A stretch of 64,000 nucleotides of DNA, from NCBI RefSeq assembly GCF_003334305.1, contig NZ_QOWS01000019.1; one strand, written 5' to 3'. The notes under the pieces were generated by a model that worked only from the letters and a program-made list of their open reading frames with translations, ran no database searches and was not told where the DNA came from. The stretch comes from Escherichia coli (GTDB lineage: Bacteria; Pseudomonadota; Gammaproteobacteria; Enterobacterales; Enterobacteriaceae). A program made the position numbers and the translations under genes. Shown here one piece after another: positions 3,965 to 9,754 of this stretch. Position 1 is the stretch's first letter. Each line of letters opens with the position of its first letter.

Positions 3965-6142
3965 TCAGAATGATGCGGTAACTCCGGCATAGTAAGCCCG
4001 GCCTGGCTCGTTATAGGTATTCGCCCCTTCAGAAGATCGGAAGATCTGTTTATTGAGGATATTACTGACGCCGACATTAAGACGCAGATTTTTATTAATA
4101 TCGTAATTGAAGTTCGTCCCCACCAGTGAATAAGCGCCCAGCTCTTTACCTGACAGACCGCCAGTATCTTCACTGCGGGTTTCCGCATGAGTACGCGGTT
4201 TTTGTCTGCCATATAACGTCCAGTTGACGCTGGCAGAAAACGCCTGGGTGATGGTCCAGTTAAGCGAGTTATTGATAGTATATTTCGGGATGACCGACAG
4301 AGGATTACCGGTGTCTTTTTGCTCCGAAGTGATCATCCATGTGGCATTGGTATTCCAGTTCAGACGATCTTTCACCAGTGGGAAAGACATACTGGCTTCG
4401 ATACCGTCCACCAGAGCTTTCCCGCCATTCTGCCACTTGAGGATATATGCGCCTGAAGCGGTTTGCCCGATAACGTTATCCCCGGCCACGATCTTATTCT
4501 GGTAATCATTGCGGAAGTAGGTCACACTTGCGTGGTAATCTTCCCAGGTGAACTCCAGCCCAATTTCTTTATTGACGCTGATTTCCGGATCGAGATCTTT
4601 ATTACCGATCAGGTAGCACCCGCCTGATGTAATATCTTTTGGACAGCCATTGCCTTTCGAGTAGAGCAGATAGCCTTCACTGGATTGATACAGGTTTGGG
4701 GCTTTAAAGGTTCGGGCAACCCCTGCTTTGACTTTGAAATAATCGCCCAATTCCTGCGAAAGATTCAGACTGGGGCTGAAGTTCCCGCCGGAGTCGCTGA
4801 GATAATCAAAGCGCAGGCCGGGAATGATATTCGTGCCAGGAACCGGCTCAATGTTATCTTCAATATACAGCGCACTGATTTGAGAATGATTTTTACTGCT
4901 GCGATCCGCAGCAGAGCCAGAAATACCGCTGATATCACTGTCATTCACCGTCAGGCTGGTAGAGGAAGGATCATCGAGCTTATCGCGGTTCCACTCTGCA
5001 CCAACGGTCAGCGTTTGATCAACCATCACATTCAAAGGAATATTAAGCTCGCCGCTGGTTCGCCAGGAACTCAGGCGATTGGTCGTAAACTTTTCACCCG
5101 CTAAAATACGCCCTTCACCACCGCCGGATAATCCTTCATTCATGCGGGTATTATTGGTTTTCTCGTAATAAACACCAAAGCGACTTTGTCCCCAGTCCCA
5201 GATACCATTATGCGTAATGCCATAATTCTGTCGGTACAGGCGGTTCGTCTCTTTGCCGGATTTTGCCAGGCTTTCGGTAACTGCACTGGAAGAACTGTTT
5301 TGCGTATCGCCCGCATAGATATTCCCCTGGCGGCTATATCCGGCTTCGAAATCGAGAATCTGCTGCGGATTTAATTTCCACGAGACAACGCCGTTAATAT
5401 CTTTGTTACGTACCCCTTCATGCCCGGCTGCGTTTTTCGTACCGACCGGAGAATTAATATCCCAACTGTCAGCATCCGTTTTATTCAGGTTACCATACAA
5501 ACGCGTGGTAAGAGCATTACCAGCCAGAGGCCCACTAAGGCTGAAATTGGCGCGACGCGTAGCGCCCTCATCGCTACTTTCCGGCTGATTGGTGTATAAC
5601 GACAGCGAACCGTGCCAGTCGTTGGTGGGACGTTTGGTAATGATGTTCACCACCCCCCCGGCTGCCCCCGAACCGTAGCGCGCCGCCGCAGGGCCGCGGA
5701 TCACTTCAATACGCTCAACCTGTTCCGGTGGCACCCAGTTGGTGTCACCGCGGGTATCACGCTCTCCACGCCAGCTATAACGCACGGAGTTACGTGACGT
5801 CACCGGTACACCATCAATTAAAATTAAGGTGTTTTCCGGCCCCATACCACGAATATCGATCTGGCGGTTGTTACCGCGTGTGCCCGAGGCGCTATTGCCG
5901 GTAAGATTGACGCCAGGCATTTTACGAATAATATCTGAAAGGTCGTTTACCGGAGGGGTCTTTTTAATATCCTCGCTGGTAATAACCGACACGCCCGGCT
6001 GCTGTTTTAATACCTGCTCAGCGGTGGCTTCCACCACCAGAGTCTCGTCATTATCATCGTCGGAGGATTTGGCTACTGATACCTGGCTATTCAACCCAAC
6101 CAGGAGCACAGTTAGCGACCAGAGGATTTTGTTAATTCTCAT
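3965..6142 (-). CDS. iroN: TonB-dependent salmochelin outer-membrane receptor IroN
   Basis: 725-aa ORF with signal peptide, TonB-box-like N-terminus and C-terminal beta-barrel ending in an aromatic residue; convergent with iroBCDE as in known iro loci. Confidence 0.9.
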   Translation of the reverse strand: MRINKILWSLTVLLVGLNSQVSVAKSSDDDNDETLVVEATAEQVLKQQPGVSVITSEDIKKTPPVNDLSDIIRKMPGVNLTGNSASGTRGNNRQIDIRGMGPENTLILIDGVPVTSRNSVRYSWRGERDTRGDTNWVPPEQVERIEVIRGPAAARYGSGAAGGVVNIITKRPTNDWHGSLSLYTNQPESSDEGATRRANFSLSGPLAGNALTTRLYGNLNKTDADSWDINSPVGTKNAAGHEGVRNKDINGVVSWKLNPQQILDFEAGYSRQGNIYAGDTQNSSSSAVTESLAKSGKETNRLYRQNYGITHNGIWDWGQSRFGVYYEKTNNTRMNEGLSGGGEGRILAGEKFTTNRLSSWRTSGELNIPLNVMVDQTLTVGAEWNRDKLDDPSSTSLTVNDSDISGISGSAADRSSKNHSQISALYIEDNIEPVPGTNIIPGLRFDYLSDSGGNFSPSLNLSQELGDYFKVKAGVARTFKAPNLYQSSEGYLLYSKGNGCPKDITSGGCYLIGNKDLDPEISVNKEIGLEFTWEDYHASVTYFRNDYQNKIVAGDNVIGQTASGAYILKWQNGGKALVDGIEASMSFPLVKDRLNWNTNATWMITSEQKDTGNPLSVIPKYTINNSLNWTITQAFSASVNWTLYGRQKPRTHAETRSEDTGGLSGKELGAYSLVGTNFNYDINKNLRLNVGVSNILNKQIFRSSEGANTYNEPGRAYYAGVTASF

Positions 6143-6237
6143 ACCTATTCCCTAATAAATGCCTAACTTAAAATGTTTGATCGTTAAGCTCACATCCTTG
6201 CCAGATATTTTTTACTGCCATTATTGTTTTTATATAA

Positions 6238-6259
6238 GAATGATAATTAATATCATTTA
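6238..6259. promoter_or_regulatory. Candidate Fur box in the iroN promoter region
   Basis: Sequence tgataattaatatcattta, made of GATAAT-like hexamers, about 100 bp upstream of the iroN start; about six mismatches to the 19-bp Fur consensus. Confidence 0.4.
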
Positions 6260-6996
6260 GCAAAAAAAAAAGCAATCCCTCACAAGATAAATATATCGAT
6301 TTTTCATAAATATCAAATTGATATATAACATATGTTTTTTATTTCATTGCACTTGTCGATCATCGGGAATTTTGTCACAATTTCTCACGGATAGTGTTCA
6401 CATTGTTTCTGACCTGCATTTCAGGCGCGGGCGCTGCTTATGTATATAAGGGCCTGTGGTCGACGAATCAGCATAATCAGATCTTCCTGCGAGCAATTTC
6501 TTTCAGCGTATCAGGCAGCACTATCGGATTATCTACGTGCGTTTTTGATTCACATTGTGTGTGAAACTTCATACATCATGATTCGCTTTCCCTACTCAGT
6601 TCTGATGATTGTTTTTTATTCTATTAACACGGAGTTAAGATTCTACCCTCGGTGTCCTCATTATTAATGAGGAATGCTACCTATCTAAAAACTGACCGAA
6701 ACTTTGGGGCATCCCTGGAGGTTTCCAAGGAGAAAAAGGTGACAGTGATAGTGCCACATTGTGAGGAAATTCCTGAGAAACTCCTGGTTCACACACATAA
6801 TTCAGGAGTTTGCCATAGATAGTAACCAATTGTTTTATATTTTAAGACCATTAAATACGCGGCTACGATAGCGCTTTATATAATCATAAACTGTAGAGAT
6901 AAAATATCTGCTTCTCTGATAACACTAATTGAGTGTCTTAAACTAAGTAATTTCATTTTTCCCCCTTTAAAAGCAATATATGTGCAATAGTTGAAG

Positions 6997-8031
6997 TTAA
7001 AGCTGTGCTGCCAGAGTTGATAATAATTGTTCTGTCTGTTGCCATGATATGCATTCATCAGTAACAGACTGACCATACTCTAGCGGAAAACTATCGGATT
7101 GTTTTCCATCTTGTAAAAAGCTTTCCACCATAATGCCAGCTACATATCCTGGTATTTTTTTCCGATTATCTATAACTTGACGTGCAACGGAAATTTGCCG
7201 TTTAGCCACTTTACCGCTATTACCATGGCTACAATCAATTATCAGACGATGGTTAATACCCTCATCATGCATTAATTTCACTGCCTTAGTTATATCAGAC
7301 AAACCATAGTTAGGTTCTCTACCTCCACGTAATATTAGATGTCCATGTGGATTGCCATCGGTTAATAGTGTAGATATACTATTTGTTAAAGATGTCATAT
7401 ATACAATATGTTGTTCACGGGCTGCAATAATAGCGTCAATAGCTAAGTTAATATTTCCATCAGTACTGTTTTTAAATCCAACTGGACAATGTAAACCAGA
7501 CGCAAGTTGACGATGCGTTTGTGATTCAGTGGTTCTGGCACCAATAGCACCCCAACATATTAAATCAGCAATATAGGGAGTAAGAAAAGGATCGAGGAAT
7601 TCTGTAGCGGTTGCGACACGCATCGTTGTGATTGAAGCCAAACACTGGCGAGCATATCGTATCCCTTTCTCAACATCATAACTTCCATTTAGATCAGGAT
7701 CGTGCATTATTCCCTTCCAGCCTTTACGGGTTCGAGGTTTCTCAAAATAAGTGCGCATTACAATGTACATTTTCGATAAGTACTTATTCTGTAATACGAA
7801 CAATCGCTTCGCATAATCAACTGCGGCCTGAACGTCATGGATTGAGCATGGACCAACAATCACAAGTAAGCGAGGATCTTTTCCCAGCAAAATATTCGCT
7901 ATAATATCTCGTTGCAGAGAGATCCATGTTACGGTTTCTTCCGATACTGCGATTTCTTTATGAATCTCGCCCACAGTGGGTAAACTGCCAAGCAACTTCC
8001 CGCGGTAGATTAATTTACTAGCTGACTGCAT
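6997..8031 (-). CDS. Class I 3-deoxy-7-phosphoheptulonate (DAHP) synthase, AroF/AroG/AroH family
   Basis: 344-aa ORF aligning by eye along its length with E. coli AroG (IVGPCSIHD, YFEKPRT..GWKG, WGAIGARTTESQ.HR.LASGL, GFKN.TDG, ILRGG.EPNY); AGGAGA ribosome-binding site 4 nt before the ATG. Confidence 0.85.
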   Translation of the reverse strand: MQSASKLIYRGKLLGSLPTVGEIHKEIAVSEETVTWISLQRDIIANILLGKDPRLLVIVGPCSIHDVQAAVDYAKRLFVLQNKYLSKMYIVMRTYFEKPRTRKGWKGIMHDPDLNGSYDVEKGIRYARQCLASITTMRVATATEFLDPFLTPYIADLICWGAIGARTTESQTHRQLASGLHCPVGFKNSTDGNINLAIDAIIAAREQHIVYMTSLTNSISTLLTDGNPHGHLILRGGREPNYGLSDITKAVKLMHDEGINHRLIIDCSHGNSGKVAKRQISVARQVIDNRKKIPGYVAGIMVESFLQDGKQSDSFPLEYGQSVTDECISWQQTEQLLSTLAAQL

Positions 8032-8080
8032 CTTGTCTCCTAAAAGCGCTATTTCAGACCATCAGTTGCACACAGTAGAT

Positions 8081-8099
8081 GATAATGATAATCATTTAC
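8081..8099. promoter_or_regulatory. Fur box upstream of the DAHP synthase gene
   Basis: gataatgataatcatttac matches the Fur consensus GATAATGATAATCATTATC at 17 of 19 positions; about 50 bp upstream of the start codon at 8031. Confidence 0.6.
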
Positions 8100-8244
8100 T
8101 GTATAATTGGCAATATATGGGGATTCATAGTCATTTCTGAGATAATATACGTTAGGCCTTCTCTCCCGTACGGAAATCACTTGTTTTCCGTAAATTACCT
8201 GAATCTTAATCCCTGAGCTGCGGCTAGCTGTGGAACTCACAAAA

Positions 8245-8899: not shown

Positions 8900-8997
8900 C
8901 AGGGCAATTGCCCGGGCTTTTTTTGCTCAAAAGTCACAGGAGCACCTCCGTTCCATGATGTAAACGTGACACAACTTATTGTTATTGATTATTATTA

Positions 8998-9440
8998 TCA
9001 TACCGTGATTATGTTGTCATGCACCTGTACACTGATAAAAGAAAGGGAGAACAGGAGGCTGGCTGAACAACCAATCCGTTCGTCCAGTTCAATGGCGGCT
9101 ATCAGGTTCTGCTCCGCAATGTACTCACGAATGCGCTTCCTGTCCTGGCTGGCCAGCATGGTCCAGAATATCTCCATCATTTACCGGCGACTTTCCTGCT
9201 CATTTCATCCCGCCATGCAGCAGCGGAAGATTCGACCATGTCATGGGGAAGCACATCGCCGCGCTCGAGTTGCTGACGTCCTGCCTCAACCTGGTCACGG
9301 AACCAGGTATTATGCTGCCGTTCCACGGTCTGGCGCATAAAATCCCGGATTAACTGAGAGCCATTACGGTCCATGCTTTTTGCAGGGCCATAAAAGCATC
9401 CTTCAGTTCAGCGTCAATTCTTAAACTCATATTAACCTGT
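8998..9440 (-). pseudogene. Remnant toxin-antitoxin module: truncated ParE/RelE-like toxin and frameshifted RHH antitoxin
   Basis: Toxin frame matches the first ~38 residues of the intact 93-aa toxin at 20957-21238 then diverges at the deletion join; the antitoxin frame lacks one base (gcagggccat versus gcagcggccat in the intact copy). Confidence 0.6.
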
Positions 9441-9735: not shown

Positions 9736-9754
9736 GATAATGATTACCATTCTC
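9736..9754. promoter_or_regulatory. Fur-box-like sequence upstream of cvaA
   Basis: gataatgattaccattctc, about 16 of 19 matches to the Fur consensus; it lies ~300 bp upstream of cvaA, so the link to that promoter is uncertain. Confidence 0.3.

Follow-up and report, generated by a model that had tools for sequence, protein, structure and literature searches.

This analysis indicated that the interval between iroN, which encodes the salmochelin receptor, and the DAHP synthase gene on a virulence plasmid of ColV type, within the window (the whole stretch of 64,000 nucleotides of Escherichia coli DNA that was analysed), is very probably an ordinary non-coding composite spacer, made of the iroN control region and of neutral debris that includes the stump of an IS110-family element. 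Under this reading, the functional part of the gap would be limited to the first ~130 bp next to iroN, the other ~720-740 bp being neutrally drifting debris. The analysis showed where the segments begin and end, their homology to IS110-family elements, how conservation is distributed and that the divergence is neutral, and Fur and RyhB control of iroN is taken from the literature. Such a control region has already been published for orthologous loci, and the finding is an ordinary one, suggesting no new kind of element. The new details are a base-level map of the joins (6260, 6770 and 6886) between the iro module, the IS110-family stump and the DAHP-synthase cassette, as well as evidence for neutral drift of the remaining spacer. 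The IS110-family stump at 6770-6885 was previously unannotated. Both are useful for the annotation of ColV and ColBM plasmids, for retracing the assembly of their iron-acquisition region, and for understanding the spacer as a recurrent breakpoint in the IS1-mediated loss of DAHP synthase and colicin V genes.

From a mechanistic point of view, we propose that Fur would repress the iroN promoter through a box lying over its -10 element and transcription start and that, with a ~98-nt leader carrying a RyhB pairing site, expression of iroN would be restricted to iron limitation at the level of both transcription and translation. The ~720 bp of distal debris would be a by-product of the way in which the iron-acquisition region of the plasmid was put together and would comprise old iro-flank DNA with a lineage-specific deletion, an IS110-family stump that lost its 5' portion as the DAHP-synthase cassette became its neighbour at 6885/6886, and the 3' flank of this cassette. 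This debris would drift neutrally and tolerate indels, and in related plasmids IS1 and IS3 would often insert into it or have their deletions end there. The order of these rearrangement events is the one that we infer. The segments concerned are as follows.

3965-6142, minus strand: iroN open reading frame (ORF).
6143-6240, minus strand: predicted 5' leader of iroN, ~98 nt, near-invariant in five iro lineages; its transcription start is a predicted one.
6188-6204, minus strand: candidate RyhB pairing site; the mRNA reads CUGGCAAGGAUGUGAGC, which complements RyhB GCUCACAUUGCUUCCAG.
6236-6254, strand unspecified: Fur box, 15/19 to GATAATGATAATCATTATC; 7-1-7 core TGATAATTAATATCA.
6247-6275, minus strand: predicted sigma-70 promoter of iroN; -35 TTGCTT at 6275-6270, 17-bp spacer, -10 TATTAA at 6252-6247.
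6276-6769, strand unspecified: decaying iro-flank DNA, non-coding, with no constraint detectable in lineage comparisons.
6347-6353, strand unspecified: deletion scar of the ColV lineage between short direct repeats TGYRCTT, from lineage comparison.
6770-6885, minus strand: remnant of an IS110-family insertion sequence, 3' end, from blastn and tblastn.
6770-6788, minus strand: 19-nt right terminus of this remnant, from the shared start of homology.
6789-6791, minus strand: stop codon of the remnant.
6792-6882, minus strand: last ~32 transposase codons of the remnant, with one frameshift near 6841/6842.
6886-6996, minus strand: 3' flank of the DAHP-synthase cassette, from homology with the copy in a UPEC island.
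6997-8031, minus strand: ORF of DAHP synthase (3-deoxy-7-phosphoheptulonate synthase), 344 aa.

Since both flanking genes are on the minus strand, the gap itself (6143-6996, 854 bp) precedes iroN and follows the DAHP synthase gene in the direction of transcription, and the annotated order of the neighbourhood is iroBCDE, iroN, gap, DAHP synthase, cvaAB-cvaC-cvi. The first-pass annotation had described an AT-rich, gene-free gap of about 850 bp with an A10 run at about 6262-6271 and no convincing ORF, and this description proved accurate. Its GC content is 35.4%, against 50.9% for the whole window, and only 1.7% of 854-bp windows are as AT-rich. The A10 run occupies exactly 6262-6271 on the plus strand. 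The longest ORF within the gap reaches 75 aa (6440-6667, plus strand) and is interrupted by a stop codon in the copy of E. coli RM13752 (83-85% identical), a diverged relative in which none of the gap ORFs is conserved. No feature is annotated in the gap in any RefSeq or PLSDB record, and hundreds of IncF ColV/ColBM plasmids from E. coli and Salmonella share its sequence at 100% identity. In some ColV plasmids the DAHP synthase gene is frameshifted, and PGAP then gives a shortened enzyme together with a 44-aa 'hypothetical protein' at the gap edge; the latter is an annotation artefact and does not amount to a gene in the gap.

Conservation was found next to iroN. Five iro lineages were aligned, namely ColV, the UPEC chromosome HB37, E. 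coli RM13752, plasmid pSCU-115 and the Klebsiella virulence plasmid pV; an exact-pattern scan of genome contigs for the iroN leader sequence, aimed at Salmonella, returned zero matches. Across these five lineages, Klebsiella included, conservation was limited to 6143-~6275, from the ATG to just past the Fur box, and the Klebsiella sequence upstream of this stretch is unrelated to that of ColV. Both the iroN ATG (6142) and the Shine-Dalgarno sequence immediately upstream of it are conserved. The Fur box is the only such site in the gap, any such site being obtained in 1.4% of gap shuffles, and it is kept in all five lineages whereas the DNA upstream of the box is not. Its core overlaps the predicted -10 element (6247-6252) and the predicted transcription start, and the box is a weaker match than the other Fur boxes of the window with their 2-3 mismatches. 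The TTG of the -35 element and the 17-bp spacing are retained in 5/5 lineages despite differing spacer sequence, the Klebsiella counterpart reading TTGAAT-17-TAATAA, and the A10 run corresponds to the T-run of this predicted spacer. A consensus promoter scan in which T is required at position 6 of the -10 element did not call the predicted promoter, and it is from the sequence that we infer the two hexamers and a transcription start near 6240. Taken together, the consensus match and the conserved overlap with the operator point to a Fur-repressed iroN promoter, here predicted on the ColV plasmid, in line with the first-pass proposal that the gap holds the iroN promoter and a candidate Fur box. 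ChIP-seq and RNA-seq in UPEC CFT073 have identified iroN as a direct target of Fur, with iron-dependent repression (PMC7157518), and Fur control of the iroN promoter has been demonstrated in Klebsiella (PMC10470599).

The leader would add a second level of iron control. Its block CTGGCAAGGATGTGAGC (6204-6188, minus strand) is complementary to the RyhB core GCUCACAUUGCUUCCAG, with which it forms a duplex of 16 bp with one bulge on each side, as computed with the core only, the fold of a duplex with the whole of RyhB being uninformative. This duplex was equalled by 6/1000 shuffles, but its energy is not exceptional against the window, where 210/1726 other segments do as well, so that the case for the site rests on conservation and on published work on homologues. 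The site is indeed unchanged in 4/5 lineages and carries a single change in pSCU-115, and the RyhB sequence was confirmed in 5425/5426 E. coli genomes. In Salmonella, activation of iroN by RyhB and Hfq has reportedly been established with compensatory mutations (Balbontin 2016, as cited in PMC11347178). RyhB also positively controls iroN in CFT073, in which the Salmonella pairing site is conserved (PMC7157518), and Hfq-dependent activation of Klebsiella iroN by RyhB-1 has been proven with compensatory mutations (PMC11347178). Complementarity and conservation thus argue for a RyhB-activated leader, predicted on the ColV plasmid.

As a whole, this control region resembles those of CFT073-type UPEC and Klebsiella iroN in the position of the Fur box, the -35/17 bp/-10 geometry, the RyhB-complementary block and the Shine-Dalgarno sequence. 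Over the iroN-proximal segment that they share with the window (6144-~6327), the CFT073-type UPEC chromosomes sampled (HB37 and clone D i14) show ~97-98% identity, and the Klebsiella upstream copy is ~89% identical to ColV over the first 116 bp. ColV differs from UPEC by having A10 where UPEC has AAAAGAAAAA and by lacking 124 bp further upstream, with no functional difference. On the other side of Klebsiella iroN, a 222-bp ORF located 61 bp downstream is iroP, which encodes a repressor of type 3 fimbriae (PMC10470599). It was considered as an occupant of the gap and rejected on account of this downstream location; in the ColV locus, by contrast, iroE is convergent with iroN at the iroP position, and iroP is lacking.

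Beyond the control region, homology with the gap ended at different points in different lineages. The HB37 chromosome is 96-97% identical up to 6474 and weakly similar to ~6520, after which sfaX follows; in CFT073-like genomes ISEc40 breaks the homology at 6327; pSCU-115 is ~75-82% identical, with weak homology as far as ~6545; and RM13752 is ~79-85% identical throughout 6276-6769. A SfaX/PapX-like remnant beyond 6474 was sought by tblastn and rejected, as there was no match. At the 6347-6353 scar, HB37 has 124 bp, RM13752 ~87 bp and pSCU-115 a related longer segment; since all three carry sequence at this point, it is the ColV lineage that underwent a deletion between the TGYRCTT repeats. The main comparator was the RM13752 chromosome, where an island (NZ_CP044311.1, 3065976-3084912) has iroBCDEN, gap and DAHP synthase gene in an arrangement collinear with the ColV plasmids. 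Its iroN is ~99% identical to that of ColV (15 differences in 2178 bp), and beyond iroN the two agree at 112/117 positions (96%) to ~6259 and then at ~80-85% over the remaining gap; identity is ~83-88% for ~6260-8115 and 88.5% overall for 6359-8115, the DAHP synthase gene included. The RM13752 island is a clear recombination mosaic, with a breakpoint near the iroN promoter. Its DAHP synthase part is 88.5% identical to ColV and 96% to the UPEC copy, and past this gene the island carries Tn3 and IS110 debris with frameshifted hydrolase and omptin genes.

Further from iroN, the first-pass statement that no transposase remnant was visible at the junction was overturned, and an insertion-sequence end, whose detection had been named beforehand as evidence against its picture of the gap, was indeed present. 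In a sensitive blastn search, 6770-6885 aligned over 116-118 bp with the 3' ends of transposase genes of the IS110 family, at 72-76% identity (E 3e-10 to 1e-11); these genes lie in 92 Citrobacter, Enterobacter and Klebsiella plasmids and also in E. coli chromosomes. By tblastn, 6882-6792 (minus strand) matches residues 415-446 of a 446-aa transposase (...YIKRYRSRVFNGLK / KTIGYYLWQTPELCV*), and this reference protein scores 258 bits, for a cut-off of 140, on NCBIfam NF033542, 'IS110 family RNA-guided transposase'. The homology begins at the same base, 6770 (TTCCTGAGAAAC...), against three unrelated left flanks, namely IS30 in Citrobacter, an IS3 remnant in two chromosomes of E. coli and, in the window, the iro flank, and 6770 is therefore the terminus of the element. 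In comparison with the 446-aa IS110 element of Citrobacter and Enterobacter IncF plasmids (WP_008786676.1), the position of the terminus is alike, and it is the ~32 codons, the stop codon and the 19-nt terminus that show this 72-76% identity; however, only 116 bp of ~1.5 kb are left, the DEDD/RuvC-like domain, the Tnp domain and the bridge-RNA region are missing, and the frame is broken. The retained coding part corresponds to the frameshifted C-terminal tail beyond the NF033542 profile (residues 15-405). With neither the DEDD (RuvC-like) nor the Tnp catalytic domain intact, the remnant would not be capable of transposition, and it is an inert scar. No other fragment of this element was found within the window, and an IS110 pseudogene 1.6 kb past the RM13752 DAHP synthase gene was rejected as its missing part. 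An 11-bp tandem unit, GAAAYTCCTGA, present in 1.9 copies at 6766-6786, straddles the IS110 terminus, and the pW224N allele has one more copy.

On its other side, the stump gives way abruptly to the cassette. A four-way alignment showed that IS110 homology switches to cassette homology at 6885/6886, and the copy of a UPEC island (A1.S1.65) is ~90% identical to the window from exactly 6886 to 8193. The DAHP-synthase gene thus behaves as a discrete ~1.3-kb cassette. This cassette adjoins the IS110 stump and iroN in ColV and RM13752, whereas in UPEC some 24 kb separate it from iroN, and its neighbours are remnants of IS3 and ISL3. That the gap marks the junction of the iro module with the neighbouring block, as had been supposed, was borne out, the IS110-family stump marking the seam. 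A strong Fur box with 2 mismatches to the 19-bp consensus lies at 8081-8099, ~50 bp upstream of the DAHP-synthase start codon (8031, minus strand), and would imply an iron-regulated supply of precursors for catecholate siderophores. It agrees with the Fur regulation of c1220, the DAHP synthase isozyme of the CFT073 pathogenicity island (PMC7157518), CFT073-like UPEC islands carrying a ~90% identical copy of the ColV cassette (6886-8193). No convincing intrinsic terminator was found for DAHP synthase, the 6886-6996 segment folding less stably than shuffles (z = +2.1), and read-through into iroN may therefore be possible. A terminator-like hairpin at 6739-6757 (minus strand) was rejected, as it is weak and destroyed by a 6-bp deletion in RM13752. 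When 100,044 species genomes were searched for a donor of the DAHP synthase and its flank, the matches reached at most ~52% identity, besides one contig at 100%; the nearest other relative, ~52% identical, is from Vibrio anguillarum. The contig, SFGN01000235.1 (2.6 kb), belongs to a metagenome-assembled genome labelled 'Lachnospiraceae bacterium' and encodes a DAHP synthase protein 100% identical to that of ColV; it is almost certainly a misbinned fragment of an E. coli ColV plasmid.

Two other histories of the gap were weighed against a composite spacer. The whole gap could be one native intergenic region that has always lain between iroN and the DAHP synthase gene, with no mobile element involved. 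The collinear order of iroN, gap and DAHP synthase gene in the diverged chromosomal copy of RM13752 means that the arrangement is old, and significant inverted repeats are lacking, both of which fit such a history; we nevertheless grant it very little credence in view of the sharp-edged IS110-family 3' end at 6770-6885, of the UPEC-island cassette, which has no adjacent iroN and whose homology starts exactly at 6886, and of the quite different upstream neighbours of iroN in UPEC and Klebsiella (sfaX, ISEc40, iroD). The first-pass remark that no inverted repeats are visible was upheld, since the best one, with arms at 6363-6388 and 6751-6776 that are complementary at 20/26 positions, was matched or beaten in 34% of region shuffles and is not conserved, its arms being complementary at only 12/26 positions in RM13752. 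It is this repeat that would delimit a miniature inverted-repeat transposable element at 6363-6776 with 26-nt imperfect inverted repeats. Such an element is scarcely credible, as its right arm straddles the IS110 terminus and as 5,426 genomes of E. coli and 72,556 plasmids contain no copy of it outside the iroN-DAHP synthase context.

The other question is whether the distal gap (6276-6996) holds a gene for a small protein or RNA, or a site at which some unknown factor would act in cis, and here again the answer is most unlikely to be positive. Between ColV and RM13752, divergence is 0.169 over 6260-6996, against 0.174 at the 4-fold degenerate sites of the DAHP synthase gene (25/144), and differing sites number 43/289 in 6475-6769 and 16/121 in the IS remnant; this test relies on a single diverged comparator, has limited power, and could be blurred by the mosaic history. 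The distal gap thus appears to evolve at the neutral, synonymous rate. The substitutions show no codon periodicity, and every gap ORF is interrupted in RM13752. An 86-aa ORF annotated at the homologous position of pSCU-115, upstream of iroN, would speak for a gene, but was rejected as a conserved one: a comparison with 5.8 billion proteins gave homologues in a single E. coli cluster only, and the frame is disrupted in ColV, HB37 and RM13752. At the RNA level, an Rfam search of the gap at E <= 1 gave no matches, and its folds are nothing unusual against shuffles (z-scores -0.7 to +2.1). The distal gap moreover tolerates changes of length in natural ColV alleles, with 11 bp duplicated in tandem at 6770 and 10 bp missing at 6417-6426, and some plasmids that are otherwise intact carry an IS1 insertion in it. 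There is also a direct repeat of 16 bp, TTCACATTGTnTnTGA, at 6397-6412 and 6549-6564, whose copies fall within the two longest stretches that ColV and RM13752 share without a difference (32 and 21 bp); however, runs of this length are roughly what chance predicts, and the repeat is probably due to chance. It is very unlikely that the two islands that contain it (6384-6415 and 6548-6568), the most conserved of the distal gap, are operators of an unidentified regulator, or part of a short transcript, coupling the expression of the Fur-regulated DAHP synthase with that of iroN; if true, such coupling could, for example, control read-through across the terminator-less spacer. A small protein or RNA gene would be expected to be conserved beyond the neutral rate and to keep its ORF, or its RNA structure, in diverged copies, and nothing of the kind is apparent in the gap; a conserved small gene, which had also been named beforehand as evidence against the first-pass picture, was looked for and none was found.

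A composite spacer that drifts in this way appears, from comparisons of related plasmids, to be a recurrent site of IS1 and IS3 insertion and a recurrent deletion endpoint. In plasmid pYuKOS15-1, the gap carries a simple IS1 insertion with a 9-bp duplication of 6806-6814, and in other related plasmids IS1 or IS3 is joined to the gap at 6322, 6403, 6462 and 6726. At the first three of these joints, the sequence resumes in cvaC/cvi at 13702-13884, DAHP synthase and cvaAB being deleted, and the IS1 joint at 6726 leads to sopA, outside the window. These gap-to-cvaC/cvi deletions, seen in ColBM-type relatives with a copy of IS1B or IS3 at the gap position, are recurrent, independent events with differing endpoints. 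With respect to the IS1-mediated adjacent deletions of ColV and ColBM plasmids, the version in the window is intact and uninterrupted.

Besides the Fur boxes of iroN and DAHP synthase, five further Fur-box-like sites with 2-3 mismatches were observed in the first 20 kb of the window (8981-8999, 9736-9754, 14163-14181, 17555-17573 and 19988-20006), against 0.02 expected by chance, which indicates a dense cluster of putative iron-regulated promoters.
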